DNA from: Escherichia coli
GTDB taxonomy: Bacteria; Pseudomonadota; Gammaproteobacteria; Enterobacterales; Enterobacteriaceae
Length of the DNA stretch: 64,000 nt
Strand: one strand, 5' to 3'
Assembly (NCBI GenBank): GCA_023061495.1
Contig: GCA_023061495.1_3643.1
In this document: positions 6,015 to 57,182 of the stretch, piece by piece
Layout of the letters: each line of letters opens with the position of its first letter
How positions within the stretch are numbered: position 1 is the stretch's first letter
Program-made: the position numbers and the translations under genes
The notes under the pieces: generated by a model
The model's input: the letters and a program-made list of their open reading frames with translations, nothing else
What the model was told of the DNA's origin: nothing
The model's database searches: none

Positions 6015-7640
6015 ATGGCTAAATTGAGTGCAGAAAGGTTTATCGAAAAAGCTCGTAGGGTTCACGGAGATAAGTACGACTATTCTCTTATAGAATACAA
6101 AACATGCAAAGATAAGATAGAAATAGTCTGCAATACCTGTGGTAACCACTTCAACCAGACACCGGATAACCATATAAATCTAAAAAGAGGATGCCCTGTT
6201 TGTGGAGCTGAGAGATCTGCAAAATCAAGAAAGGGTAAGAAATTCCCCCATGAGCGTGGTAACAGGTGCACTACAGAAGAGTGGATCAAGAAGGTACTAA
6301 AAAGATATCCTGAAAATGCTGAAAAGTATGATTATAGTCATGTAGTGTACAAGACCTCTGGAGATAAGGTTGAGATTCATTGCAAAATGTGCGGAAGAAT
6401 AATGCACCAGAAACCTAGCAAGCATTTGTCAGGGCAAGGATGCAAGACTTGCGCAGCAAGATCTGTTTCTGCGAAAAAAGTTCCTAGCTTCCAAGAAATA
6501 GTTGAGAGATGTGTAGAAGTACATGGTAGTGATTATGAGTATTTTGAAGACTCTTATGTGAACACCTCAACACCTATGATGATGCGCCACAAAGAGTGTG
6601 GGAATATCTTCATGCAGCGTCCTGAATTCCATTACGGGAAAGGACAAGGATGCCCTCGTTGCTGTCGAAATCAGTCTAATGGTGAGAAAGAGATCCTGAC
6701 GTTCATTAAAAGTGTGTATAGCGGCGATATTGAAGAGAACGTGCGTATTCTGGGCAACTTTAAGGATCCTTCCAAGAAAAAGATGGAGCTGGACATTTAT
6801 GTTCCGGAGCTTAAGCTTGCTGTGGAATATAATGGTGCCTACTGGCACTCTGTAGACAGTAAGGGGAAATGGTACCACATCCTGAAAAGGAAGGCCTGTG
6901 AAAAACAAGGTATTCGCATGTTGTCTATCTGGGATTGTGATTGGCAGGATGCTCGGAAAAGACCTATCATTGAGAGATATCTCAAGAATGCTTTAGGAGT
7001 CAAAGACGAGAAGACCGTCTATGCCAGAAAGTGCACAGTTAAAGATGTGGACAATAAAACTTACCGTGACTTTATGGAGAAAAACCACATTCAAGGGTAT
7101 GCCCCCGCCAAGGAAGTGAAGAAGGGTCTGTTTACATCTGACGGCGAGCTGGTAGCTTGTATGAGTTTTAAAATACTGAAAAACAGAGATCAAAAGGTAA
7201 CCCCTTTCGTTATGTGGGACATGGTAAGGTATGCAACAAGCTGTAACGTTCCTGGTGGGCGTAGTAAGCTGTTTAAGCATATCCGAGAAGAGTTTAAGAT
7301 GGATCATGTTCAATCCTTCCTTGACAGAGATTACTTCACAGGCGTGTCCTATAAGGAGGAGGATGGCTGGATTTTGGCAGAGGACGATCAGGTGTCTACG
7401 AGCTTCTGGAGCTACCGTGGTGGCAGAATGCCAAGGCAGGCGTGGTGGAAGTCAAACATCCCAGAGACACTGAAGCATCTCGGGTTGGACGAGTCCTTAT
7501 ACGATCCTGAGAAAACACAAGAGTGGAATGCCAAAAATGCAGGCTGCTATATCCTTGAAAACAGTGGCAACTCTCGCTTTGAATGGCACAGTGATGAAGG
7601 TAAAAATGATCCTGCATACTTGGATTGGTTGAAAGGTTAA
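6015..7640 (+). CDS. free-standing homing endonuclease candidate: three zinc-ribbon repeats plus PD-(D/E)xK (DUF559/Vsr-like) nuclease core
   Basis: 541 aa; three ~60-aa repeats each with HGDKYDYS...C-x2-C...GCP-x-C; central motif ELDIYVPELKLAVEYNGAYWHS; AT-rich with AGA/ATA codons unlike flanking genes; inserted between tail tube and chaperone genes. Confidence 0.55.
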   Translation: MAKLSAERFIEKARRVHGDKYDYSLIEYKTCKDKIEIVCNTCGNHFNQTPDNHINLKRGCPVCGAERSAKSRKGKKFPHERGNRCTTEEWIKKVLKRYPENAEKYDYSHVVYKTSGDKVEIHCKMCGRIMHQKPSKHLSGQGCKTCAARSVSAKKVPSFQEIVERCVEVHGSDYEYFEDSYVNTSTPMMMRHKECGNIFMQRPEFHYGKGQGCPRCCRNQSNGEKEILTFIKSVYSGDIEENVRILGNFKDPSKKKMELDIYVPELKLAVEYNGAYWHSVDSKGKWYHILKRKACEKQGIRMLSIWDCDWQDARKRPIIERYLKNALGVKDEKTVYARKCTVKDVDNKTYRDFMEKNHIQGYAPAKEVKKGLFTSDGELVACMSFKILKNRDQKVTPFVMWDMVRYATSCNVPGGRSKLFKHIREEFKMDHVQSFLDRDYFTGVSYKEEDGWILAEDDQVSTSFWSYRGGRMPRQAWWKSNIPETLKHLGLDESLYDPEKTQEWNAKNAGCYILENSGNSRFEWHSDEGKNDPAYLDWLKG

Positions 7641-46229: not shown

Positions 46230-46475
46230 TTATAGCTCCACTAGCAAAGTGCTCTCAAAATGCCTCTCATGCAGACCACTATAAGGAACCACTTCCACAA
46301 CACCGTCGCGGATGTATGGAGTCATCATGGTGACATAATCACCGAACGGGTTGGCATTATCACTAACCACGACCACATGCTGCCCCTCCTTGGCAGAGTG
46401 CCAGATAGATCTGCACTTCATCATGTGTTCGAGAGCGCCAGGTAAAATCTTGTTACGTTCTTTACGGGTCTTCAT
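46230..46475 (-). CDS. hypothetical small protein
   Basis: 81 aa; start overlaps upstream gene stop; function unknown. Confidence 0.4.
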   Translation of the reverse strand: MKTRKERNKILPGALEHMMKCRSIWHSAKEGQHVVVVSDNANPFGDYVTMMTPYIRDGVVEVVPYSGLHERHFESTLLVEL

Positions 46476-46921
46476 AACAGATATAGCTCCTTATGAAAGT
46501 GGGCTTTCAATTTCTCACCGAGAAACTTCTTGATACCTTCCTCTAAAGTGTTTTCGATGTAGTCCAGCTTAACTGCTTCGATAGACATATCATAGATCGC
46601 CAGCTCTAAGCTGTCAAGTCCCATCATAGCATGAACCATAAGATTTTCATCTTCAGATACATTCAGGGGACTTCCTATAACATCTGGAGGCAGAATAGTT
46701 TCCCAATTATTCTGGGCGGTAGATCTCCCGCCATCCACCTTACGTCTCAGCTCGAATGTATTCTTAGTGTAGAACACTTCATAAGAAACGATACGACTGT
46801 CACTCTCATAATAGACGAAGTTCAAGTAGGAGCCCAGCCGTAGTCGGCAAACTTCTACCCCAAACCATTGTTTCTTATAAGAATTCAGGCTAATGCTGTC
46901 GCATTCACGTTTGCTCAACAC
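46472..46921 (-). CDS. hypothetical protein
   Basis: 149 aa, GTG start preceded by AAGGAGAGAG; function unknown. Confidence 0.4.
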   Translation of the reverse strand: MLSKRECDSISLNSYKKQWFGVEVCRLRLGSYLNFVYYESDSRIVSYEVFYTKNTFELRRKVDGGRSTAQNNWETILPPDVIGSPLNVSEDENLMVHAMMGLDSLELAIYDMSIEAVKLDYIENTLEEGIKKFLGEKLKAHFHKELYLL

Positions 46922-46937: not shown

Positions 46938-47171
46938 TTAATCTTCGTAAATAATGATTTCTGCTTTAGGTTTTCGTGCTTTCAGGTCCAGCTCTATCCA
47001 GTGCACCATCGCTGTTTCAAGAAAAACAGCCTGGATGCATCCGTCTTCAGCGTGCCCTACCAGCATAACAAGATCTTCACATTCATCATCTGCATCACGG
47101 ACATACAAGATCTCTCCAGATTCAAAGTCTTTCACAACCTGATTGCTGGATAATTTACGAATTTTTGCCAT
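46938..47171 (-). CDS. small early protein, divergent member of a tandem paralogue family (D)
   Basis: 77 aa; RBS AGAGGG; shares N-terminal basic region and G-x-(V/I)-hydrophobic core pattern with the three 87-aa genes upstream. Confidence 0.45.
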   Translation of the reverse strand: MAKIRKLSSNQVVKDFESGEILYVRDADDECEDLVMLVGHAEDGCIQAVFLETAMVHWIELDLKARKPKAEIIIYED

Positions 47172-47172
47172 A

Positions 47173-47436
47173 TCAGAAACCCTCTAAAAAGCTCTTGTAG
47201 AAAATAATCTCAGTATCCACACCAGTCACGATCTTGTCGTTCCTGATTTCATCTGTAAGATAGGTGTCAAAACGCAGCACCTGTGTGGTATTGTCACACA
47301 TCCACTCGGCTGTTACCATGGCAAAAATCTTAGCATCTTCATTATCTGGTGTAAATGTTACCACCTCACCGCATTTAAACTTTTCGATAGGTTGCGTGTT
47401 AGCTTTTGGTTCTGCAATGGTGATTTTCGTGGTCAT
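47173..47436 (-). CDS. small early protein, tandem paralogue family (C)
   Basis: 87 aa; RBS AGGAGGAG; motif KCGEVVTF aligns with PCGTVVSC and APGTVVMF of the neighbours. Confidence 0.5.
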   Translation of the reverse strand: MTTKITIAEPKANTQPIEKFKCGEVVTFTPDNEDAKIFAMVTAEWMCDNTTQVLRFDTYLTDEIRNDKIVTGVDTEIIFYKSFLEGF

Positions 47437-47699
47437 TATTCTCCTCCTTCTTTTGAATAGCTTGTCTCTCCAAGGATGGTAATTTTGGTGTCAAGCTCTG
47501 TAACTTTCATGTTTGGTGGCAGATCGTACAACTCATTATTTTCTAAATCGAACCCCCATACACAATGTTCCCCTGTTTTGACAATCATAACTATGTTTTG
47601 AATGCCGTCTCCGTCACAACTTACCACGGTCCCACATGGAAAACTGTCTGCACGCTTTTTGTTCTTCACTTTAGAATTGAATACAATGCTAGTAGCCAT
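47436..47699 (-). CDS. small early protein, tandem paralogue family (B)
   Basis: 87 aa; RBS GGAGGA; 1-nt start/stop overlap with neighbours; clear similarity to paralogue A. Confidence 0.5.
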   Translation of the reverse strand: MATSIVFNSKVKNKKRADSFPCGTVVSCDGDGIQNIVMIVKTGEHCVWGFDLENNELYDLPPNMKVTELDTKITILGETSYSKEGGE

Positions 47700-47962
47700 T
47701 ATTGTTCCTCCACCATAACTTCGCCAAGAATTTCTATGCAGGCATCCATTTCTGTAACAACCAAGGTGTGAGGTAGTTCTGCAAACACCTTTCTGAACAG
47801 GTCAAATACCCCAACATATATGTTTGCAGGATGTGATCTCACAACAAGTGCTGTATTCACATCTCCAAGTTCATCAACAAACATCACCACAGTACCTGGA
47901 GCTACTGAAGACAGATACTTCTTAGTTTTACGGTTGGATGCAAATTTTAACTCTGTTGCCAT
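47699..47962 (-). CDS. small early protein, tandem paralogue family (A)
   Basis: 87 aa; RBS GGAGGAG; MATELKFASNRKTKKY...APGTVVMF...VGVFDL...LGE. Confidence 0.5.
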   Translation of the reverse strand: MATELKFASNRKTKKYLSSVAPGTVVMFVDELGDVNTALVVRSHPANIYVGVFDLFRKVFAELPHTLVVTEMDACIEILGEVMVEEQ

Positions 47963-47977
47963 AAATAATCTCCTCCT

Positions 47978-49438
47978 TTATTTAACGTACTCGATTAATT
48001 CCACAGTTTTCCCAAAGCTCGGGATATAATTTTTATTATACCCTTCAGTGAGAACCCATAAAGTATCGTACTTTTTCCACTTGTTGTCAACAGCCTTTTG
48101 TTCAAAGTTATGCTCAAAGTAGAGATCGGTAAGGACGATGACATCTTTTGCATTCGGTATGTTAGCATCCAGATACTCGAACACGCAGGCGGCTGTTGTG
48201 CCCCATGTTGAGTGGACCTCATAGTTGATCATCTCATCGATGTTACCGCGAGTGTATACTTTAACCTCTCCAACCTCGGTTGACCAACAGAACATCGTAA
48301 CCTTAAACTCTTTATACAAATTGCACAACCCGGTGATCTCATTAAACATTTTCTTTAAAGTTCTTTGTGAGATCGATCCAGAAACGTCTAAAGCCACTAC
48401 AATATCTATAGTGTTTTCCGGATTACGACCAGGAACAATAACGTGTTGATTCTTGTTTATAGCTCCAACTTTTCGCATTGTGGTGGTCAAAGACCCAGAT
48501 CGGCGACCAGGTTTTCTGTAGGTTAACTCAGCCTTTCTTTTAGATAACATACGTTGCTTAATAATATCTATATAATTGATTACAGGCTTGCCTCTGTTTT
48601 TGACAAACTCGCGCACCGCCTCGGGGCAACGACCTCCTGAAGCTTGCATTGCTGCTTCCAACATGTCACCAGAATCCTGCATGGCCTGATCTTTATCAGA
48701 TTGACTGATTACTGGTTGCGGCTGATCATACCCCATAGCCTTTCCAAGATCATCACTAGTGCCACCGTTCCCGCTCATGTGATCATCGGTTTGTCGTTTA
48801 TCTCCTTGGGAGTTCTCACCTTTACCGTTCTTACTTTTACCGCCATTCTGATCTCTTTGTTTATCAAGAACTGCATAGACGTTCTCAGCAATCCATCCAT
48901 GAAACTTCATGTCGCAGTAGCAATTAGCTAAGAAGCCAAAAGGCTTACCTTTTACGAACTCAGTGCTTTTCCCCTTCGGGAAGAAAACACAAGGAGGCTT
49001 GCTAAAGTCAACCACAAGACCTGTGTTGATAACGTGATCACAAGCAATATTGAACAGTTCCGGCTCAAAGCTTTTACCACGGACCAGATGATCACAGATA
49101 ATATGCCCCACCTCATGTGACAGAAGAAATGCCACCTCTTTCACAGATTTTGGGGAATAGAAAACCTCAGCCATCTCAAACTGCTTGTCAGTCAGAGATG
49201 CTTTAAGAATGGTTTTACGCTCATCTGCCAACCCCATAATGAACTCAGGGCTGTAGTAGATGCGTTTATGGTCTGTTGCCATAGTGGAGCACCATGTGTG
49301 GTTTTCTACGAACTGCAACCCTGACAACAGTGTGCCATAAAACGGCAGCTTTTCAAGAAGATACATGCGAGCGGCCTGCAGCATTCGCAAGGCATCATCT
49401 TTTTGTGCGGTAATGATTTCTGAACTTCTGCTATCCAT
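47978..49438 (-). CDS. vWA-domain protein with N-terminal HExxH metallopeptidase-like motif
   Basis: ATG at 49438 preceded by GGAG, chosen over the track's TTG at 49459; HEVGH zinc motif; MIDAS-type VVALDVSGSIS. Confidence 0.6.
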   Translation of the reverse strand: MDSRSSEIITAQKDDALRMLQAARMYLLEKLPFYGTLLSGLQFVENHTWCSTMATDHKRIYYSPEFIMGLADERKTILKASLTDKQFEMAEVFYSPKSVKEVAFLLSHEVGHIICDHLVRGKSFEPELFNIACDHVINTGLVVDFSKPPCVFFPKGKSTEFVKGKPFGFLANCYCDMKFHGWIAENVYAVLDKQRDQNGGKSKNGKGENSQGDKRQTDDHMSGNGGTSDDLGKAMGYDQPQPVISQSDKDQAMQDSGDMLEAAMQASGGRCPEAVREFVKNRGKPVINYIDIIKQRMLSKRKAELTYRKPGRRSGSLTTTMRKVGAINKNQHVIVPGRNPENTIDIVVALDVSGSISQRTLKKMFNEITGLCNLYKEFKVTMFCWSTEVGEVKVYTRGNIDEMINYEVHSTWGTTAACVFEYLDANIPNAKDVIVLTDLYFEHNFEQKAVDNKWKKYDTLWVLTEGYNKNYIPSFGKTVELIEYVK

Positions 49439-49471
49439 TAAAACTCCAGAAGGGGCCAATGGCCCCTGTCA

Positions 49472-50449
49472 TTATTTAACGTGCTTGAAAATACCAGCCA
49501 ACTCGGTCATTGTCATGCGGGTGGTCTTCATAAGGTCTGTCATAGCTTTTTCCATGATTGGAGATACCACCATGAAGTTACCTTTGGTGAAACCTTTGTT
49601 CCAGTCGGTAACTAATAGTGGTTTAAGTCCGGCCCCGAGACGCTCACCAGTTAAAGCACAACATTTTCGAATGTATGTGCTCTTAAATTGGCTGAACGAC
49701 AGATCAACTTTCATGCCTACATCGTAGAACGTTTGACAATAGAAGGTGTAAGCTTTGGCAATCTCAACATCATCAGGTAGTGCAGGAACCTCTTCTGTAA
49801 GCCCCTCTTCGACCTCCTGAGTCTCTTTTTCCTCTTCATGTACCTGTTGCGTCATTTCTTCAATCTCTTCTGCGATAGGTTCGTTTACAATGTCAGAAAT
49901 GTGCTTCTTGGGTGCACGATAAGTAACTTTAGACATAGGTAGCATATCTTCCTCCTCTTCTTCGTCAAAGAGTGCTAGTTTATCCTCTTCCGTTCCATAT
50001 TGCAAGATGAAATCTTCAAAAGTATAATCACCTTTCAATTTCTCCATACGCTCTTCGCTCAGGTGGAGCATCATCTGCTGGACAATTTTTCGATCAGTTT
50101 TGTCTTTAATCAAGACTGCGGTCTTTTTATCTACCAGACAGTCCTTCAGGGAGTTGCACCTTAACCCAACCACACAACAGTTATCAATTGCGTAAGGACC
50201 TTCATCATCTATCCGCTCTAAGGATGGGTAGAAAGGATTCCCCAACCCGTTTTCATCTGTGTGCATGTCAAAAGGTATAAGGGTATAGTCGCACACCCCC
50301 TCTCCTAAAAGTTTTTTACCAAATAGGAGGTATTCTTCCCATGACAGGTTGAACTCTATATCTCGTTTCCGTGCATTATTTTGTTTGCGTCTGTATTTTT
50401 TTAGCAGGCGCTCTAATTCTTCTGGTGTATAATATTTTTCAAGATTCAT
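49472..50449 (-). CDS. first early gene of the minus-strand unit; protein with degenerate HNH-like motif and acidic linker
   Basis: ATG at 50449 lies about 25 nt downstream of the predicted minus-strand transcription start; the track's TTG at 50515 would precede the promoter; motif SLERIDDEGPYAIDNCCVVGLRCNSLK. Confidence 0.45.
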   Translation of the reverse strand: MNLEKYYTPEELERLLKKYRRKQNNARKRDIEFNLSWEEYLLFGKKLLGEGVCDYTLIPFDMHTDENGLGNPFYPSLERIDDEGPYAIDNCCVVGLRCNSLKDCLVDKKTAVLIKDKTDRKIVQQMMLHLSEERMEKLKGDYTFEDFILQYGTEEDKLALFDEEEEEDMLPMSKVTYRAPKKHISDIVNEPIAEEIEEMTQQVHEEEKETQEVEEGLTEEVPALPDDVEIAKAYTFYCQTFYDVGMKVDLSFSQFKSTYIRKCCALTGERLGAGLKPLLVTDWNKGFTKGNFMVVSPIMEKAMTDLMKTTRMTMTELAGIFKHVK

Positions 50450-50480
50450 AAGTTGTCTCTTGTGCTTTGTAGGTGAAGAA

Positions 50481-50509
50481 ATCTTATCAAGTGCCTCAAC
50501 AGATGTCAA
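50481..50509 (-). promoter_or_regulatory. early promoter, minus strand (TTGACA, 17 bp, TAAGAT)
   Basis: Minus-strand -35 TTGACA (50509-50504), spacer 17, -10 TAAGAT (50486-50481); back to back with the plus-strand promoter. Confidence 0.55.
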
Positions 50510-50522
50510 CCTCAAAAACGTG

Positions 50523-50551
50523 TTGACTTTACTCTAAATCCACGATATAGT
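50523..50551 (+). promoter_or_regulatory. early promoter, plus strand (TTGACT, 17 bp, TATAGT)
   Basis: -35 TTGACT 50523-50528, spacer 17, -10 TATAGT 50546-50551; divergent from the minus-strand early promoter. Confidence 0.55.
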
Positions 50552-50591
50552 GCACCCATTCGAAAGAAAACGAACACAGGATCACTTAATC

Positions 50592-51491
50592 ATGTCAAAT
50601 CTTAACAGCTTTAGCACTCGGTGGAAACAAGATATCACAACCAATCTCTCAGCAGGAGATATCCTTTCTGCAATTTACGAGGCCTTGGATGATAAAGCTA
50701 CTTCAAAATCGGTCTGTACCAACCCGCTAATTCCTATAGTAATGAAGGTGATTGAACGTAGGTTGGTATCCGGATCCGATAAGTGGACATATCTTGATAA
50801 TGGGGGACACACTTACTCCAACGGATATGTTGATATAAAAGTAGAATACGCAGTATCATACCGACGGAGCGGTTCTGTAACTTTCAACTTCTCTGGAGGT
50901 TTCCGATCTCTGGCAACTTCACCTTTTGTTTCCTCAGAGCAAAAGTTTGAACTTCCGTTCCTTTGGATGATGGCTAACGCGACAGGCAAAACCCCTGTAA
51001 GCATTCGCGTAAAATACAACTACAACGGATCTAGTAAGATCTATGCCGAGAGTGTATCAGCAAGTTTTTATTTTGTGATGGGGGATGGAATCCTCAAACA
51101 TATAAAGATGTGCGATATGCATGATGTTATAAATGAAGTGACTGATAAGAATGTCCTAGTGAAAGACCTCAATAATTTTTATACACCTGGAGACTATTAC
51201 GTCAACCGCCCACTGTGCATCTTTAATGCCGCACACCCTTTAGGTGAGTATTTGATCGCCAATAGCGATATTGCCAATAATCGCTTCGAGGTAGCAAGAG
51301 TACAGAATGAGGTGTTGACATCTTGCAAGAGCGGTGATAAGTTTACCGAAGAAGAGATGGGTGTTTTAGAGATGATGGGATATAAGTGTAGCCTTTGGGT
51401 AGATGAGGTGTTTAATGACGGCATCTATGGACAGGATATTTACCCACTAAAGAAGTATACTGATTCCAGTTTAATTTACGCGGAGATTTGA
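50592..51491 (+). CDS. hypothetical early protein
   Basis: ATG 50592 downstream of the predicted transcription start; the track's start at 50550 would overlap the -10; 299 aa. Confidence 0.5.
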   Translation: MSNLNSFSTRWKQDITTNLSAGDILSAIYEALDDKATSKSVCTNPLIPIVMKVIERRLVSGSDKWTYLDNGGHTYSNGYVDIKVEYAVSYRRSGSVTFNFSGGFRSLATSPFVSSEQKFELPFLWMMANATGKTPVSIRVKYNYNGSSKIYAESVSASFYFVMGDGILKHIKMCDMHDVINEVTDKNVLVKDLNNFYTPGDYYVNRPLCIFNAAHPLGEYLIANSDIANNRFEVARVQNEVLTSCKSGDKFTEEEMGVLEMMGYKCSLWVDEVFNDGIYGQDIYPLKKYTDSSLIYAEI

Positions 51492-51698
51492 CTATGATGA
51501 AGTCATGTGGTAGTGTATATTATGTTGGTGAGAATGTTCAGGCAGATAGTGTGTGGAAATCACCACCGATGATGCCTTCTTGAGCGGGTTATGTTTCCCC
51601 AATCCTGGGGACATTCTCCCTCACCCTGGAGATTTTGTTGTCAACAAGACAGACGGTTATACCGTGTGCCTGATGGTTGAAAAAATCTTTTTAGACAC

Positions 51699-51727
51699 TA
51701 GACACAATCACCGTCTTGTGCTAAAAT
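51699..51727 (+). promoter_or_regulatory. sigma70-like promoter with extended -10 (TAGACA, 17 bp, TGcTAAAAT)
   Basis: -35 TAGACA 51699-51704, TG 51719-51720, -10 TAAAAT 51722-51727. Confidence 0.45.
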
Positions 51728-51768
51728 TTCAAGAATGTAAAATGACAGTTGCCTAAGGAGGCCTATCA

Positions 51769-52125
51769 ATGTCTAAAGTTACTTATCGTGCAGCTATTTA
51801 CTGCAATGAGCAACCAATCAATAGTGATGGTCACTGCTTTTTTAAAGAAAATCAGTTGGGCTGTATTGCCCTCCCTGATGAAGGGGAAGGTTATATGATT
51901 GCATTGACAGGGTTTGAGCCTGAAGCCTTGGAAGCCAATCTGGACTACATGGTAGAGAAGGGTGCTGCAGACTTGGTTGCCAATGGCCTCTCCATAAGCC
52001 TTGAAGAAGTGGAGCGCTTCATGGGCAATTACCGTGTAGTGCGTGAGTTTACTGTCGAGGTGGAAACTCCAGAGTGGGGTGGCACTGAAACTAATGCTGA
52101 AGAAAAAGAAGAGGAGGTAGAATAA
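51769..52125 (+). CDS. hypothetical early protein (acidic C-terminus)
   Basis: RBS AAGGAGG; 118 aa. Confidence 0.5.
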   Translation: MSKVTYRAAIYCNEQPINSDGHCFFKENQLGCIALPDEGEGYMIALTGFEPEALEANLDYMVEKGAADLVANGLSISLEEVERFMGNYRVVREFTVEVETPEWGGTETNAEEKEEEVE

Positions 52126-52382
52126 TGAAAGTGCAAATCTTGACTAATGCCGAGAAGATGTTTATCGAAGATACGCCTTTTGAAACTGGTGAGCTACAGT
52201 TTGTATATTTTGTTGACTTAGATAAGGTTTTTCCTGCGCTGAACCTAGGTTTGGAGAAAGTACCTTATAAAACTCTATGCCAGGTTGTCCGTGCCTTAGC
52301 GGCAGATGGGGAGTTCCACACCATTGAAGATATCCAGACCTATGGGTATCTTGAACTGCAACGAGAAGAAGAGGTGGACTGA
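52125..52382 (+). CDS. hypothetical early protein
   Basis: RBS AGAGGAGG; start overlaps upstream stop; 85 aa. Confidence 0.5.
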   Translation: MKVQILTNAEKMFIEDTPFETGELQFVYFVDLDKVFPALNLGLEKVPYKTLCQVVRALAADGEFHTIEDIQTYGYLELQREEEVD

Positions 52383-52384
52383 TA

Positions 52385-52765
52385 ATGGCCCAGTGGAAGA
52401 CAACAGTTGACCTTCATGATCAGTGGTTAGGACGCATCACCGAAGACGGGAAACTAGTGGAGTGGGACAACAAGCATGTTAGCGAGTTGGCAAGTATTGT
52501 GGCTGGCAAATTACGCTCCAAGTTCCCTGAACAACTGGATCCTGATAGTTCAAAGTTCGATCCTGAGTTGGAGGATGTTGTATACTACTTCGATACCGTT
52601 GATGACTACGACGCGTGGTTTGCAGCACGTGAGCTTTACCCTCAAGGCTCTGCTATGCGCCAGATGGAAGAAGATTATCCTCCGTGTGAGCAATTCAACA
52701 ATGCAATGGCTTGCCTTTACGATTGGGCAGATAAGAACCTTGTCTGGATTCGGACTGCATTCTAG
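52385..52765 (+). CDS. hypothetical early protein
   Basis: RBS GAGGTGGA; 126 aa. Confidence 0.5.
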   Translation: MAQWKTTVDLHDQWLGRITEDGKLVEWDNKHVSELASIVAGKLRSKFPEQLDPDSSKFDPELEDVVYYFDTVDDYDAWFAARELYPQGSAMRQMEEDYPPCEQFNNAMACLYDWADKNLVWIRTAF

Positions 52766-52809
52766 TAGGTAGGGATGGCGGCAAGGATGCTGCTTAAGGA
52801 GCAGTAGAT

Positions 52810-53079
52810 ATGTTATACCAGCAGTACGAACTTCGTGCAGAAAAAGAATTAAATTTTGACAAAGATATTCACAGATATTATTATGGGAAAGTTAGAGGGC
52901 AAGCAAGAAAGTGTACTCCAACACTCTTTTATGCCAGCAGACGACTGCCTCCAGAAGAGGCAACAGCAGAAAGGGTTGCGTACAACTGGGGAGTCACGTA
53001 TGATATTGACAGATCCGATGTGATATCTGTTTTGGAAAACTTTGAAAACACTTACACACAAGTAGAGGACTTTTACTAA
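52810..53079 (+). CDS. hypothetical early protein
   Basis: RBS TAAGGAG; 89 aa. Confidence 0.45.
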   Translation: MLYQQYELRAEKELNFDKDIHRYYYGKVRGQARKCTPTLFYASRRLPPEEATAERVAYNWGVTYDIDRSDVISVLENFENTYTQVEDFY

Positions 53080-54263
53080 TGTCAAGAAACGTATTCGAAA
53101 GTGGTCAAATCACTGTCCGCGAGTTGCCAGCTATTATTCAATTTGCCCAGCGTCATAACCGATCTGTCCTGATTTTAGGACCGATGGGTGTGGGAAAGAG
53201 TCAGGTTATGAAGCAGATTGCTGATAATATGTTCGGTGAGCGAGATGACAACCTGGTTGACGTGCGGCTGTCAGATAAAGATCCTGCTGACTTATCTGGA
53301 CTGCCTATCCCTGTAGAGGTAGATGGAGCTACACGTACAGTGTTTGCAATTCCAGAATTTTGGCCTGCAGACTCAGACTGGAGCGGAATTATCTTTCTGG
53401 ATGAGCTTACTCATGCAGATAACTACCTGCAGAAGGTTGCAATGCAAATTATGCTCGACCACAAGTGCGGCACCTATGCATTTCCTAAGGGCTCTGTTTT
53501 TGTAGCTGCAGGTAACCGTGCTACAGATGGTGCTGTTCTTTCAGCGCTCGAAGCTCCTCTGGCTAACCGCTTTATCATTGTAGAAGTTACAAGCAATGCA
53601 GAGGTATTTATTGAGGACTACGCATTCCTTAATGGTGTGCATTCCTCTGTAATTGGATATCTGAAAAGAGTTCCATCAGCTATCGATAATTATGAGGCTA
53701 TGGCTGAGATTAATTGTCCGTCTTTTGCCACACCGCGATCTTGGGTTGCTGCATCTGACATCCTGCACGATTTTGACAGCGGTATTATTTCTGACGCTAT
53801 GGCTCGTGTTCTTCTGCAAGGTGCTATCGGTCACACTGCAGCGGTAGAAATCTGGACCTACCACACCAAGAAACGAAACTTGCCAGAAATCGGTCGGATT
53901 ATGGCAGGGGGTTGCAAAGAGTATGTAGGTCCTAAGCAGCCAGATATCTTGTGGATTCTGGGGTCTGAAGGGTGTATCGCTATTCGTAACATGATGGAAA
54001 ATGCAAGTATCTCCGACGAAGATCTTGTCAGCTGTGTGGCAAACTTCCTTGATTTCCTTTGGGAAAATTTCAAGGATGAGAACCGAGACTTTGTATTCTC
54101 AGTCTTTATGGCGATGATGAAACCCAACGCCCTAGGAAATGCCTTACTTATTGGTAAAGGCCGGGACAAGATCGTTGCTCAGCTGATCAAAGCATACCCG
54201 AACCTGATGAAGATTGTAAAAGAGTTTGGTGAAGAGTTTAGCGCCATTTTAGCTAAAGCTTGA
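53079..54263 (+). CDS. AAA+ ATPase, MoxR/AAA_5-like
   Basis: 394 aa; Walker A LILGPMGVGKS; Walker B IIFLDELTHA; start overlaps upstream stop. Confidence 0.65.
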   Translation: MSRNVFESGQITVRELPAIIQFAQRHNRSVLILGPMGVGKSQVMKQIADNMFGERDDNLVDVRLSDKDPADLSGLPIPVEVDGATRTVFAIPEFWPADSDWSGIIFLDELTHADNYLQKVAMQIMLDHKCGTYAFPKGSVFVAAGNRATDGAVLSALEAPLANRFIIVEVTSNAEVFIEDYAFLNGVHSSVIGYLKRVPSAIDNYEAMAEINCPSFATPRSWVAASDILHDFDSGIISDAMARVLLQGAIGHTAAVEIWTYHTKKRNLPEIGRIMAGGCKEYVGPKQPDILWILGSEGCIAIRNMMENASISDEDLVSCVANFLDFLWENFKDENRDFVFSVFMAMMKPNALGNALLIGKGRDKIVAQLIKAYPNLMKIVKEFGEEFSAILAKA

Positions 54264-54272
54264 GGAGGTTGT

Positions 54273-54653
54273 ATGGCTAAAGTAGGTAAGCGGGGAAACT
54301 ACTTGGTGGTATTGACCGAGGAGCCGGAGAAGGAGTACGAATGCAGCTCCACTTGCGTGATCGATATCCGAGGAAAAGATGTAGATGAAATCTGGTTTAA
54401 AATATTGGACGCTTGCGACAGCAGTGACTATTTCTTCATCTATGTCAACGATAAAGCGGGGTTCTTCCATGACGATGGAGAGTTACCGTATGAAATCTAT
54501 GAGCTTGTAGAGGCTTGCCATCGTGGAGATGCGGAGTTGTTTGGTCTACGGCTGAAAAGCGGTAAGTTCTTCTACCAAGACGAATGCATGAATCTTCACA
54601 ACTTCGTAGAGGGAACTTGCAACGATGGAGAGATTCTGGCACACTACGACTAA
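54273..54653 (+). CDS. hypothetical protein
   Basis: RBS GAGGAGG; 126 aa; terminator hairpin downstream. Confidence 0.5.
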   Translation: MAKVGKRGNYLVVLTEEPEKEYECSSTCVIDIRGKDVDEIWFKILDACDSSDYFFIYVNDKAGFFHDDGELPYEIYELVEACHRGDAELFGLRLKSGKFFYQDECMNLHNFVEGTCNDGEILAHYD

Positions 54654-54666
54654 TTTCTAAGACCAC

Positions 54667-54692
54667 CCCCGCTTCGGCGGGGATTTTCTATT
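54667..54692 (+). terminator. rho-independent terminator with UUCG tetraloop
   Basis: CCCCGC-TTCG-GCGGGG followed by ATTTTCTATTT; same hairpin as at 28735. Confidence 0.6.
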
Positions 54693-54702
54693 TGGAGTTA
54701 TT

Positions 54703-55203
54703 GTGAAAATTAAAATCTTTGCTATTATTTTGAGCGCATTTTTATCGCTGCCTGTTGTTGCAGCACCAAAACAAAAAGTATATCACACCTGCAAGCCATC
54801 GGATACTAAGGAGAACATTCTGGCATGCAATATCTACAGGGAAGCTAGAGGAGATGGCACGATGGGTATGCTGGCATCTGGGTTTGCCACACTAAACAGG
54901 AAATCTCACCCTAAATACCCAGACACTATAAGAAAGATTGTCTACCAACCTAACCAGTTTTCGTGGACAAACCACGGCAAAACTTTTAAGGTGACAGAAA
55001 AAGATTCATGGGATCACGCTAAAAGTCTTGCAAAGATGCTTCTAAAGGTCTATAATAACAACCATGTTGCATACATGGCTATGGATATAACAGGTGGAGC
55101 AACACACTATCATACAACAAAAGTACGACCGAAATGGGCAAAAAAGATGCAGAGGACAGCTCAATTCGGGAGTCATATCTACTACAAGGAGCGCAATAAA
55201 TGA
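54703..55203 (+). CDS. secreted cell-wall hydrolase (SleB/CwlJ-like Hydrolase_2 domain) with Sec-type signal peptide; endolysin candidate
   Basis: GTG start preceded by GGAG; N-terminal MKIKIFAIILSAFLSLPVVAAP; catalytic-domain motif CNIYREARGDG...ATLNR...PDTIRKIVYQPNQFSW. Confidence 0.6.
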   Translation: MKIKIFAIILSAFLSLPVVAAPKQKVYHTCKPSDTKENILACNIYREARGDGTMGMLASGFATLNRKSHPKYPDTIRKIVYQPNQFSWTNHGKTFKVTEKDSWDHAKSLAKMLLKVYNNNHVAYMAMDITGGATHYHTTKVRPKWAKKMQRTAQFGSHIYYKERNK

Positions 55204-57182
55204 TTGTAAACAGTAATGAAACTAAAGCAGTGCTAACTGGGAATTTGGAGGTCACAAGGGGATCAATTTCTCTGAACAAAGAGACTTTTGGGTTAATCAT
55301 TAAAGGGATTTATGAAGATAAGGTGCTGGCAAGCTGCCGTGAACCAATCTTCAATGCTGTGGACTCCCATGTTGAGTCTGGACGGAGTGATGTACCGATC
55401 ATCATTCACTCCCCTACAGACCTTGAACCATACTTCTTTGTGCAGGACGTTGGATTGGGCATGTCAGAAGAGATGGTCCGCAACACCTTCATGAACTTGG
55501 GGGAATCCACCAAGCGCAACAGTAATGCCTTGGTAGGTAATAAAGGTGTTGGTTCAAAGGCCCCGTTCAGCATGGTAGACACTTTTGATGTGATCAGTGT
55601 GCACAACGGTGTGGAAAGCACATACCTATTGTTCTTGGATCAAGGCATCCCAAATGTCACCAAGATCCGTGAGCGGAAGACTGAAGAGCATAACGGGGTA
55701 AAAGTTCAGTTTCATGTTAAGAAAGAGCATGTTCTGAAATATCGCACTGCTATTGCATCGTGCCTACGCTATGCAAAATTCCCGTTCACCGTCACCGATC
55801 CAATGACGAGCAAGATGCTGGAGGGAGATAAGGTAGAGGCGCAGTACTATTATGAAAAAGATGGTTGGAAGATGACCATCCTGAAGGGCTATACCAGCTC
55901 CGACGAGAGTCGTGTGGTAATGGGCCACCAACCTTACCGTTCTAAGTTCCTGGAAACATTGACAGACTATCCTGCAATCTGTGTAGAGATCCCTATCGGG
56001 GATTGCAATATTAACCCTGGGCGCGAATGGACCATAGAGGGTCACGATGATGGTGGATTCCAAGAGCGTCTGGAGGCTTTTGTCAAAGAGGGTATCCGTC
56101 TTCGTGGGGCAGAAGTTGTTGCGGAATTGGAAACAGCAAAAACATCCTCAGAAGCACGCGAGATGATGAAGAACAGTGGAGTGTTCGGGCACATCTTCGG
56201 TAAGAATTTTATGTGGGAACGATGGGAAGAGACAGGCCTAGGAAATTTGGGAGACTGTGAGATCTTCGCTGGCGGCTTAAATAAAGGCCGCATAGGTTAC
56301 GCTTGTTACGGAAAGGTAGAATTCTTACGGGGAGTCTATTTAGTATTTAACGACGGAGACGGCAAATATAACCGAAATAAGTGTAACTACTTAAGCGAGA
56401 TCACCGGACGCAACGTTTTCTATTGCCGGAACACGGATCTGGTGAAAGAGTTTAAAGAGGCGGCACACCATCCGTTCTTTGCAGATACGGTCAAATTGTT
56501 ATCAGAGCTCCCTCGCCGACCTGCGAAGAAAGGTGAAACAAAAACTCATTATGAGCCAGGCTATTGGGTTAAAAAACTTGAGAAGGATGGTTACTTCCGT
56601 CGTGAGCGTATTACTAAGGCAGAGTTCAAGAAGATTAAGCACTGCATTCCTTATGAGGGTGATATCCAACGTGGAAGTTGTTGGCTGGGGCAGCTGAGTA
56701 ACATCTACCAGCAAAATTATGACCGTGTGCGTGCGGCACTCCAGATTCCTGAAGGGGAAGATCTGTACCTGGTATCAGAATCTCGTCTGCTTTGGACCGA
56801 TCCTGATTGCCAGTATGTTACAGAGAAGAGTGTGGAACATTTGTTGAAAGAGGATGCTTGGAAATTCTTACTGACTCGCGCAGCAAATGAAACTTCATAT
56901 GACAGCCTGTATAGACAATTAGGGAAAGTTATTCCCATGCAAGATTTTGGAAATTATCGGCCACATTTCCACAAGTGGGAAGGTAATACCGCGTGGAAGC
57001 ATAGTGAGCTAAATCATCGTGCCAAAATCTTAATCGCCAACCGAGTCAAATGCGGGAAGGCCTATATTGCAAGATTGGAAAAGAAATATCCACTTTTGAA
57101 GCATGTAGGCTTGAAATATTGGGACACCCCTGCTATGATTGAATACCGTGAACTGATCGATACAAAGAATAACATCAAATAA
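55200..57182 (+). CDS. rIIA: rIIA-like protein with N-terminal GHKL-type ATPase motifs
   Basis: 660 aa; GHKL-like motifs FNAVDSH, VQDVGLGMS, GNKGVGSKAPF; directly upstream of the rIIB-like gene. Confidence 0.55.
   Translation: MIVNSNETKAVLTGNLEVTRGSISLNKETFGLIIKGIYEDKVLASCREPIFNAVDSHVESGRSDVPIIIHSPTDLEPYFFVQDVGLGMSEEMVRNTFMNLGESTKRNSNALVGNKGVGSKAPFSMVDTFDVISVHNGVESTYLLFLDQGIPNVTKIRERKTEEHNGVKVQFHVKKEHVLKYRTAIASCLRYAKFPFTVTDPMTSKMLEGDKVEAQYYYEKDGWKMTILKGYTSSDESRVVMGHQPYRSKFLETLTDYPAICVEIPIGDCNINPGREWTIEGHDDGGFQERLEAFVKEGIRLRGAEVVAELETAKTSSEAREMMKNSGVFGHIFGKNFMWERWEETGLGNLGDCEIFAGGLNKGRIGYACYGKVEFLRGVYLVFNDGDGKYNRNKCNYLSEITGRNVFYCRNTDLVKEFKEAAHHPFFADTVKLLSELPRRPAKKGETKTHYEPGYWVKKLEKDGYFRRERITKAEFKKIKHCIPYEGDIQRGSCWLGQLSNIYQQNYDRVRAALQIPEGEDLYLVSESRLLWTDPDCQYVTEKSVEHLLKEDAWKFLLTRAANETSYDSLYRQLGKVIPMQDFGNYRPHFHKWEGNTAWKHSELNHRAKILIANRVKCGKAYIARLEKKYPLLKHVGLKYWDTPAMIEYRELIDTKNNIK

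Follow-up and report, generated by a model that had tools for sequence, protein, structure and literature searches.

A conserved gene pair encoding a MoxR-class ATPase and a vWA protein with a putative metallopeptidase domain lies split by an ancient inversion in an rV5-like Escherichia coli phage

The MoxR-vWA pairs RavA-ViaA, CbbQ-CbbO, and NorQ-NorD mature or modulate specific enzymes, namely Rubisco, nitric oxide reductase, and respiratory complexes. Related pairs are encoded by phages. Group 2.2 jumbo phages carry a MoxR AAA+ / metallopeptidase-vWA pair for which a role in virion assembly has been proposed (Iyer, Anantharaman, Krishnan, Burroughs, Aravind 2021, Viruses 13:63; PMC7824862). 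In N4, gp24 (an AAA ATPase) and gp25 (a vWFA protein) belong to the set of 14 genes that form the core of N4-like phages, and both are middle transcripts (PMC4193335). In Midasin/Rea1, AAA_5-type modules act with a MIDAS domain that grips the substrate and pulls it off its complex (PMC7159879). We found no experimental work in the literature on DUF2201/COG3864 members or phage-encoded MoxR/vWA pairs, and nothing in the Vequintavirinae papers examined on the rV5-type ATPase or DUF2201 genes.

We analyzed such a pair in a 64,000-nucleotide stretch of DNA from an E. coli assembly (GCA_023061495.1), hereafter the window. The pair is a known but functionally unstudied two-gene module of an rV5-like E. 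coli phage; the genes are already so annotated in public records, and for this window our result is mainly confirmatory. We consider it probable (about 0.7) that the two genes are the halves of an ancient, widespread module, an ATP-gated chaperone-peptidase, that was split by one inversion. A first-pass annotation had placed the ATPase and the vWA/HExxH protein on opposite strands about 3.6 kb apart. Both open reading frames were present where it had put them, with start codons 3,641 bp apart on opposite strands.

Table 1 Features of the locus in the window (positions are those of the window).
Feature	Position	Strand	Remarks
Conserved Vequintavirinae gene, directly downstream of DUF2201 in the ancestor	46472..46921	-	blastp chain; phrog_6790
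DUF2201-family protein, 486 aa	47978..49438	-	zincin-like putative metallopeptidase N-terminus, disordered Gly/polar-rich linker, C-terminal vWA with complete MIDAS
MIDAS DxSxS motif (DVSGS, residues 351-355)	48374..48388	-	from translation
HEVGH (HExxH) motif	49103..49117	-	from translation; residues 108-112 of the 486-aa protein
GC-rich hairpin AGGGGCC-ATT-GGCCCCT	49451..49467	-	between anti-sigma-like stop codon and DUF2201 ribosome-binding site
Anti-sigma-like (Srd-like) gene	49472..50449	-	first of leftward arm, directly upstream of DUF2201
Divergent intergenic control region, 142 bp	50450..50591		back-to-back sigma70-like promoters, each 10/12 against consensus
Promoter-like site TTGACA-17-TAAGAT, with TG	50509-50481	-	
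Promoter-like site TTGACT-17-TATAGT	50523-50551	+	
Sigma70-like promoter site TTGACA-17-TATTAT, 11/12	52856..52884	+	inside ORF 52810-53079
Divergent MoxR-class AAA+ ATPase, 394 aa	53079..54263	+	
Walker A GPMGVGKS	53178-53201	+	coordinates verified
Walker B, inside IFLDEL	53391-53408	+	coordinates verified
Intrinsic terminator CCCCGC-TTCG-GCGGGG then T-run	54667..54682	+	closes rightward unit after ATPase and ORF 54273-54653

The DUF2201 protein most likely starts at ATG 49438 (GGAG-N6-ATG), which agrees with the public annotation, and not at the upstream TTG 49459. It matched PF13203 (DUF2201_N; 101.1 bits, Pfam cutoff 23.2) and PF09967 (DUF2201 VWA-like; 43.7 bits, cutoff 26.4), both above the gathering threshold and in N-to-C order. 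Among 114 homologues with 22-42% identity, H108, H112, and D134 were invariant, and E109, H117, and R120 were at least 90% conserved. The putative zinc site of the HExxH motif was likewise conserved in a set of 27 DUF2201 sequences. The vWA fold contained a complete MIDAS (DxSxS...T...D), in which D351, S353, G354, S355, and D438 were invariant and T414 was at least 90% conserved across the 114 homologues. The proposal of a vWA protein with an N-terminal HExxH motif was borne out. The N-terminus is a putative zincin-like (HExxH) domain and would have peptidase activity. A Foldseek search against the PDB aimed at this domain returned vWA matches only, and a single-sequence PDB search with the protein returned no matches. 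The linker (residues 201-252 if counted along the 493-aa ORF) was Gly/polar-rich with 8 acidic and 7 basic residues. It is net neutral, and we therefore rejected the idea of a BchD-like acidic linker.

The ATPase has the full AAA+ catalytic set of Walker A, Walker B, sensor 1, Arg finger, and sensor 2, and G37xG39K40S41, D108E109, N146, R164 (LANRF), and R220 (ATPRSW) were invariant in 27 homologues. By itself it fell below the gathering threshold of Pfam AAA_5 (17.2 bits, cutoff 22) and AAA_3 was not reported, so its MoxR membership is transitive, via homologues at E ~1e-43. Within the 27-sequence family, AAA_5/AAA_3 matched only the 11 outgroup members and bpMoxR matched 6 (E <= 0.001). In profile comparison, the family came closer to genuine MoxR proteins than to AAA+ proteins of other clades, with hhalign giving 94.4% for RavA (score 62.7, 119 columns), 48% for Lon (score 40.7), and 15.7% for ClpX (score 32.4; P-loop only). 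The protein was structurally similar to solved MoxR ATPases and had both the helix-2 beta-hairpin insert and the pre-sensor-1 beta-hairpin. A single-sequence PDB search gave P-loop-only matches and was uninformative. The profile and structural comparisons uphold the MoxR-class assignment made in the first pass. The structural neighbours of the pair included CbbQ, NorQ, NorD, and BchD. NCBIfam and PADLOC contained no meaningful family for either protein, and the pair is thus not linked to known defence or anti-defence systems.

The region between the two arms had been described as an early divergent control region. The divergent arrangement was confirmed by the back-to-back promoter-like sites, whose -35 boxes are 13 bp apart, while early expression of the pair is suggested by promoter type only. 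Neither gene opens its arm: counted leftward, DUF2201 comes second, and counted rightward, the ATPase comes about seventh. The anti-sigma-like gene matched phrog_3118, with weaker matches to Srd / sigma70-decoy phrogs, and had no Pfam match. The hairpin that follows it is possibly an attenuator or terminator. An equivalent hairpin with other stem sequences was found at the same junction in locus L044 and in Seunavirus-like loci, where it is followed by a U-run. The ATPase has a promoter-like site 223 nt upstream of its start, and a site at the identical distance was found in L001, L042, L044, and L045, of which L044 and L045 represent a clade with an ATPase 72% identical to that of the window. 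This site was absent from Seunavirus-like loci. In the equivalent region of PVP-SE1, an author-annotated promoter (TTGACA-17-GATAAT) drives the DUF2201 arm, and the other arm had no promoter match at 9/12. By blastn, the intergenic promoter region was conserved only as far as the closest relatives. The gene at 46472..46921 is connected by a chain of blastp matches through CR9 gp128, A73_49, an ABPH49 gene, and PVP-SE1 gp215, and four small inserted ORFs now separate it from DUF2201 in the window. We considered a universal third component downstream of DUF2201 and rejected it, as the downstream gene is conserved only within Vequintavirinae.

The two family profiles matched 626 and 811 of 50,697 phage records, so that independence predicts about 10 shared genomes. 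Every sampled genome with either gene also had its partner. The pairing is far beyond chance. Both genes were present in all 11 further phage lineages, including a cyanophage, a Bacillus phage, and Rak2-like and PA5oct-like jumbo phages. In 31 of 32 ATPase-anchored viral loci, DUF2201 lay within 10 kb of the ATPase, and the exception has both genes on one contig. The order ATPase then DUF2201 on the same strand was found in 17/17 N4-like viral contigs and 5/5 context loci, and the ATPase was upstream on the same strand in all 76 gammaproteobacterial loci with enough upstream sequence. Locus L013 at first appeared to hold DUF2201 without an ATPase; this was rejected, as the ATPase is elsewhere on the same contig (L048). 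Related loci were found with a single DUF2201 protein and sub-alignments.

One ancient inversion accounts for the split layout in the window. Between PVP-SE1 and ABPH49, only the segment running from the anti-sigma gene through the HD-hydrolase to the ATPase is flipped, with both flanks collinear, and in CR9 and A73 the two genes are still adjacent. All loci with an ATPase at least 43% identical to that of the window were split, with gaps of 3.4-5.1 kb, and all loci with an ATPase at most 36% identical had both genes on one strand. The ancestral layout would have been an adjacent ATPase-to-DUF2201 cassette, and the inversion would have occurred in the common ancestor of Vequintavirus and Seunavirus. 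The inverted segment comprises the anti-sigma-like gene, the bidirectional promoter, several genes, and the ATPase, with a breakpoint exactly between ATPase and DUF2201. The two genes are now on opposite arms of one promoter region, where co-expression is still possible. Both genes in the split lineage showed strong purifying selection (dN/dS 0.015-0.058).

The domains, motifs, and co-occurrence support the reading of the pair as a chaperone/protease-like system, as first suggested from the sequence. One half would be the MoxR-type AAA+ ATPase, presumed to be a hexamer, and the other a dedicated vWA co-factor with a zincin-like peptidase N-terminus. By analogy with characterised MoxR-vWA pairs (PMC7159879), the MIDAS may capture an acidic residue, either in a target protein or in the ATPase; the MoxR ring would then remodel the bound complex by ATP hydrolysis. 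The fused peptidase domain would couple cleavage to remodelling. The two proteins presumably interact physically, and their timing in the rV5-like phage is probably early or middle. A further step, which we put forward tentatively, is that the pair is an ATP-gated, MIDAS-targeted protease that cleaves or dismantles a specific conserved host or phage protein early to mid infection. It is likewise only tentatively that we extend its use to large virulent phages (N4-like, Vequintavirinae, Rak2-like and PA5oct-like jumbo phages, some cyanophages, and Bacillus phages). If so, the pair would amount to an enzyme of takeover or maturation, widely distributed and as yet uncharacterised, and its retention after splitting or unlinking would reflect an obligatory partnership of the two proteins.

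What the module acts on can be read in several ways. A possible role, though one we favour only cautiously, is host takeover. Early to middle in infection the module would act, by remodelling or cleavage, on a conserved protein of the host or on a phage factor for replication or nucleotide metabolism. The pair is placed next to a two-way sigma70-like promoter along with an anti-sigma-like gene; genes for exonuclease, thymidylate synthase, and replication recur as neighbours; and in N4-like phages the pair is core and, in N4, middle-expressed (PMC4193335). However, the pair has no matches to known anti-defence or defence families. The hosts span Bacillus, cyanobacteria, and enterobacteria, so the target would have to be very conserved in hosts or encoded by the phage. 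The proposal made for jumbo phages (PMC7824862), in which the pair chaperones and proteolytically processes structural (tail, ejection, or head) proteins, appears somewhat doubtful here. It agrees with the Acidianus two-tailed virus, where a MoxR-vWA pair without a peptidase serves tail development, with the annotated structural genes that flank the pair in 121Q and cyanophage S-TIM66, with virion-protein genes near the gp24/gp25 homologues of roseophage RPP1 (PMC4193335), and with the unverified label 'tail protein' of phrog_6790. In the window and PVP-SE1, however, the genes lie next to promoters of sigma70 type, and the genes around them are non-structural (anti-sigma-like, HD-phosphohydrolase, rIIA/rIIB, and others); the neighbours in several lineages are a 5'-3' exonuclease and thymidylate synthase; the N4 transcripts are not late (PMC4193335); and the same cassette occurs in free-living bacteria, where there is no virion.

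It is unlikely that the pair is instead a metal-cofactor insertion chaperone like NorQ-NorD, CoxD-CoxE, BchI-BchD, or CobS-CobT, with an HExxH motif that binds metal and hydrolyses no peptide. In zincins, the Glu of HExxH is the catalytic base. Its conservation in the DUF2201 homologues together with the invariant His108, His112, and Asp134 is the signature of a hydrolytic and not a transfer site, and no specific client enzyme co-occurs consistently. In favour of this reading are the CbbQ, NorQ, NorD, and BchD structural neighbours, the nucleotide-metabolism enzymes that often adjoin the pair, the ferrochelatase gene two genes downstream in Sulfurivermis, and the many characterised MoxR-vWA pairs that mature metalloenzymes (listed in PMC7159879). 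It is very unlikely that the genes became functionally independent in rV5-like phages after the inversion, with their placement around the promoter a historical leftover. Co-transcription of the two has been lost, a conserved promoter-like site of its own precedes the ATPase, a hairpin precedes DUF2201, and in one related contig the two genes are at least 36 kb apart. Yet even this unlinked contig retains both, as does every split-type genome examined, with all catalytic and MIDAS motifs intact and the low dN/dS given above.

Outside structural and replication functions, few modules of large virulent phages are as widely conserved as this gene pair. It belongs to the N4-like core and recurs in Vequintavirinae, in several groups of jumbo phages, and in thousands of lineages of bacteria, and the split layout is a natural experiment in which the partnership outlives the loss of operon linkage. 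N4 and the rV5-like phages (BASEL collection members included) have E. coli K-12 as a host and are open to genetic work, which makes them well suited to a search for the substrate.

Compared with known systems, FtsH and Lon offer a functional analogy only, combining ATP-driven remodelling with a protease (FtsH is an HExxH zinc protease). They belong to other AAA+ clades (hhalign to Lon was only 48%), hold ATPase and protease in one chain, and thread the substrate through a pore into a chamber; they and the window pair are not homologous as systems. Midasin was the best PDB sequence-profile match of the ATPase family (1e-9), but it is eukaryotic, carries six AAA modules in one giant polypeptide, and lacks a peptidase domain. 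The vWA partners in RavA-ViaA, CbbQ-CbbO, and NorQ-NorD also lack a peptidase domain, and identity was below 20%. The bacterial MoxR-like ATPase-to-DUF2201 cassette (e.g. Sulfurivermis, Sedimenticola, Thiocapsa) shares the two Pfam domains and the gene order, with the ATPase upstream, but is cellular, uncharacterised, and about 22-25% identical to the window protein; at E <= 1e-10 the family counts about 26,000 representatives. N4 gp24/gp25 is a homologous pair, and public records annotate family members as gp24-like and gp25-like. The family HMMs matched Enquatrovirus BEU42 (ATPase 7e-57, DUF2201 5e-80) and 17 N4-like contigs (1e-35 to 1e-43 and 1e-101 to 1e-128, respectively). The two proteins of the N4-type pair, however, share only 20-28% identity with those of the window, their genes adjoin on one strand in every case, and they lack the Vequintavirinae-specific two-helix insert before the HExxH helix. 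The jumbo-phage pair of group 2.2, like that of the window, combines a MoxR ATPase with a vWA co-chaperone whose N-terminus carries a fused metallopeptidase domain, a putative one in the window, and the jumbo phages 121Q, K64-1, and Paride (PA5oct-like) were matched by both family profiles. In those phages the two genes adjoin or share a strand, and the role proposed is in virion assembly, whereas in the window, from a ~137-kb non-jumbo myovirus, they are split and divergent around a sigma70-promoter region among non-structural genes.

The window derives from an rV5-like Escherichia phage (Vequintavirus); over region 47000-55500, 125 phage records match it at 93-97% identity, among them ECP26, B9-1 and several BASEL phages. 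Both open reading frames (ORFs) claimed in the first-pass annotation, a MoxR-like ATPase gene and a divergently transcribed vWA/HExxH gene, were present. The minus-strand ORF had been listed from a TTG at 49459. The order observed there was a stop codon, a GC hairpin, GGAG, N6 and an ATG at 49438. Because of this GGAG-N6-ATG arrangement, and because public annotations use a 486-aa product, we started the gene at that ATG. Sixteen GenBank records titled 'Campylobacter phage' (host Campylobacter jejuni; for example MG065635 C12, MG065658 C7 and MG065647 D#) were 93-99% identical to E. coli rV5-like phages over this region, which is probably due to host mis-attribution or contamination.

Features of the MoxR/DUF2201 pair and its control regions (window positions unless stated)
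Feature	Position	Strand	Description
DUF2201 gene	47978-49438	-	Pfam DUF2201_N + DUF2201; 486 aa
MIDAS DVSGS	48374-48388	-	encoded within DUF2201 gene
HEVGH motif	49103-49117	-	encoded within DUF2201 gene
Two-helix insertion	residues ~69-98 of the 486-aa protein (about 76-105 in 493-aa ORF numbering)		in the DUF2201 protein (gene 47978-49438)
GC-rich hairpin	49451-49467		directly 5' of DUF2201 ribosome-binding site
Divergent intergenic region	50450-50591		142 bp; back-to-back sigma70-like sites
Sigma70-like promoter site, 11/12	52856-52884		inside ORF 52810-53079; exactly 223 nt upstream of ATPase ATG
ATPase gene	53079-54263	+	394-aa P-loop protein, phrog_1297
Strong terminator	54667-54682		end of ATPase unit

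The minus-strand product matched two Pfam domains far above their cutoffs, DUF2201_N ('putative metallopeptidase domain') with 101 bits and DUF2201 ('VWA-like domain') with 44 bits. We analyzed the conservation of its motifs first in a set of 27 homologues reaching down to 19% identity and afterwards in 114 independent representatives at 22-42%. The HExxH and MIDAS residues were kept in both sets: H108, H112 and D134, as well as the MIDAS residues D351, S353, G354, S355 and D438, were invariant, and at least 90% of the sequences kept E109, H117, R120 and T414. An exhaustive profile search recovered ~26,000 DUF2201 representatives (50% identity, E <= 1e-10), and nearly all of the best 150 matches were full-length, covering both domains. 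Given the size of the family and these full-length matches, the fusion of peptidase-like and vWA domains is therefore its standard architecture. Directly before the HExxH helix, the window protein carries a Vequintavirinae-specific insertion of ~30-45 residues, predicted with high confidence to form two helices, which is missing from N4-like, bacterial and other homologues. In public records, the pair is already named 'MoxR ATPase' and 'putative metallopeptidase / VWA-like domain-containing protein'. Across such records (Murica and PVP-SE1 in RefSeq, CR9, MiataMamis, Paride and others), the DUF2201 protein is also often labelled 'HNH endonuclease' or 'homing endonuclease' (source phrog_1314); some call it 'anti-sigma factor' or 'DNA repair ATPase' instead. 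These labels look like a propagating mis-annotation, since Pfam gives DUF2201_N and DUF2201 only.

For the ATPase alone, no Pfam AAA-type match reached its threshold (AAA_5 scored 17.2 bits, where 22 are required). Because the class could not be assigned clearly from the single sequence, we built a family alignment. Homologues ~35% identical to the ATPase (E ~1e-43) contained AAA_3, AAA_5 and sometimes bpMoxR. All 27 aligned sequences shared the Walker A and B, sensor 1, Arg-finger (LANRF) and sensor 2 (ATPRSW) residues without exception, and the top PDB matches of the family profile were midasin/Rea1 (1e-9). In the AlphaFold model (pLDDT 85), a beta-hairpin follows beta2 as an insert, and a pre-sensor-1 hairpin is also present. 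As a discriminating control, we aligned the family profile with three E. coli proteins using hhalign. RavA scored highest (94% probability, score 62.7, Walker A through sensor 1), followed by Lon (48%, score 40.7) and ClpX (16%, score 32.4, P-loop only). The protein is a divergent MoxR-class ATPase, as the motifs, profile match, model hairpins and control all indicate.

The two genes overwhelmingly go together. The closest outgroup ATPases, encoded in large phage-like contigs, are directly followed by a same-strand DUF2201 gene, and a bacterial example shows this layout too. Scanning six-frame ORFs with HMMs of the two families, we found the ATPase and DUF2201 genes adjacent, in that order, in 17/17 N4-like IMG/VR contigs. 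Both were also present in all 11 further annotated phages: PVP-SE1, CR9, A73, ABPH49, the cyanophage S-TIM66, Alishewanella phage Slickus01, the N4 relative BEU42, jumbo phage 121Q, PA5oct-like Paride, Aeromonas phage 4L372XY and Bacillus phage Goe21; five of these had been picked solely from the ATPase match list. In Gammaproteobacteria, the ATPase was upstream on the same strand in 76/76 loci with enough upstream sequence. Of 50,697 phage records searched by tblastn, 626 contained one of the proteins and 811 the other; the taxa were the same, and about ten shared genomes would be expected if the genes were independent. DUF2201 was within 10 kb in 31 of 32 ATPase-anchored viral loci, and the sole exception still had both genes on one contig (IMGVR_UViG_3300045988_163358, 136,426 bp, Vequintavirinae-like; ATPase 58% and DUF2201 45% identical to the window's). 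Both lie on one strand there, with 98 kb between them, or some 36 kb should the genome be circularly permuted, which gives the pair a third arrangement, an unlinked one. In Pseudomonas phage Paride (5964-11149), the same-strand genes are ~2.9 kb apart and separated by three small hypothetical genes and one annotated 'homing endonuclease', a label that DUF2201 itself also bears there.

The layout of the pair followed ATPase identity. Every locus with an ATPase at least 43% identical to the window's (Vequintavirus, Seunavirus and relatives) had the split, divergent layout, with gaps of 3.4-5.1 kb; all loci at 36% or below were same-strand, in ATPase-DUF2201 order and usually adjacent. Between ABPH49, an adjacent-type member of the Vequintavirinae, and PVP-SE1, the only inverted segment was that spanning the anti-sigma-like gene, divergent promoter, HD phosphohydrolase and ATPase. 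Order and orientation were unchanged in both flanks, one with RNA ligase and phosphatase and the other with DUF2201 and the genes following it, and the gene directly 3' of DUF2201 was conserved in CR9, A73, ABPH49, PVP-SE1 (gp215) and the window (46472-46921). The split is therefore explained by a single inversion, one breakpoint of which fell exactly between ATPase and DUF2201. Because the inversion was centred on the bidirectional promoter, both genes remain within a few kb of that promoter. Among rV5-like phages, purifying selection on both genes is strong (dN/dS 0.015-0.058). The two-helix insertion is older than the inversion, since it is also carried by P0141 (38% identical) and P0142 (34%), two of the most divergent DUF2201 homologues in the window protein's clade. 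In the window, four small ORFs of 77-87 aa (46938-47962, minus strand) separate DUF2201 from its ancestrally adjacent downstream gene; two are paralogues (47699-47962 and 47436-47699; 38% identity, E 2e-11), and the group looks like a lineage-specific insertion or expansion. The ATPase unit is followed (54703-57182 onward) by a secreted SleB-type cell-wall hydrolase (Hydrolase_2, signal-peptide-like N-terminus) and rIIA, with rIIB next in the related phage EmilHeitz. Under the inversion model, the hydrolase and rIIA were ancestrally downstream of the anti-sigma-like gene.

The divergent region carries TTGACA-17-TAAGAT, with TG upstream, on the minus strand and TTGACT-17-TATAGT on the plus strand, and in PVP-SE1 an author-annotated promoter occupies the equivalent position and drives the DUF2201 arm. 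DUF2201 is the second leftward gene, behind the anti-sigma-like gene. Its preceding hairpin has equivalents in other split-type genomes (L044 at 6442-6461, and the loci L049, L050, L051, L055, L057, L058, L060 and L067), with stems that differ between clades and a structure that is kept; the Seunavirus-like version has a U-run after it and often TATAAT before it. The hairpin may be an attenuator or terminator keeping DUF2201 expression below that of the upstream gene. The ATPase is about the seventh rightward gene. The 223-nt spacing of its own promoter-like site was kept in all Vequintavirus-type loci, including a clade with a 72% identical ATPase. Its start overlaps the stop of the preceding ORF (TAATG, 53076-53081), suggesting translational coupling with that 89-aa protein. 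PHROGs labels the 89-aa protein 'ATPase' (phrog_13164), for which it is far too small. Judging by these promoters, early expression is plausible; the sole direct published statement on timing places N4 gp24/gp25 among the middle transcripts (PMC4193335). The genes beside the divergent promoter are publicly labelled 'anti-sigma factor' (49472-50449, minus strand) and 'alpha 1-3 fucosyltransferase' (50592-51491, plus strand). Both labels were unsupported by our scans: neither product had a Pfam match, the former matched, in its N-terminal ~130 residues only, Srd-like, sigma70-decoy and endonuclease VII-like PHROGs, and the sole match of the latter was a function-unknown PHROG.

The most likely function follows from characterised MoxR-vWA pairs (reviewed in PMC7159879): by analogy, the MIDAS site would grip a client protein at an acidic residue, and the MoxR ring would spend ATP to remodel that client. 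The fused HExxH domain would then couple remodelling to peptide-bond cleavage, as is suggested by the invariant His108, His112 and Asp134 and the highly conserved Glu109. The pair might possibly insert metal instead, as NorQD, CoxDE or BchID do, but this is a poorer fit with the conserved catalytic Glu.

As to the process served by a remodelling and cleavage system, virion maturation has been proposed for jumbo phages (PMC7824862), and structural genes adjoin the pair in 121Q, S-TIM66 and roseophage RPP1. However, the promoter context in the window, the middle timing in N4, the frequent exonuclease and thymidylate-synthase neighbours and the occurrence of the cassette in free-living bacteria all argue against it. 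The same four observations speak for an early/middle takeover or replication-linked role.

We found no experimental work on any member of the pair in our literature search. It is a very widespread phage and bacterial module, and its substrate is the question of interest. Both the observation and the chaperone/protease-like interpretation of the first-pass annotation were upheld. The present analysis adds the co-occurrence figures, the broad motif conservation, the controlled MoxR assignment and the single-inversion origin of the split. The system itself is of a known kind, an ordinary and already annotated MoxR / DUF2201 (metallopeptidase-vWA) pair. Its architecture is identical to that of the jumbo-phage MoxR / metallopeptidase-vWA pair (Iyer et al., PMC7824862), and it is homologous to N4 gp24/gp25, two of the 14 N4-like core genes (PMC4193335).
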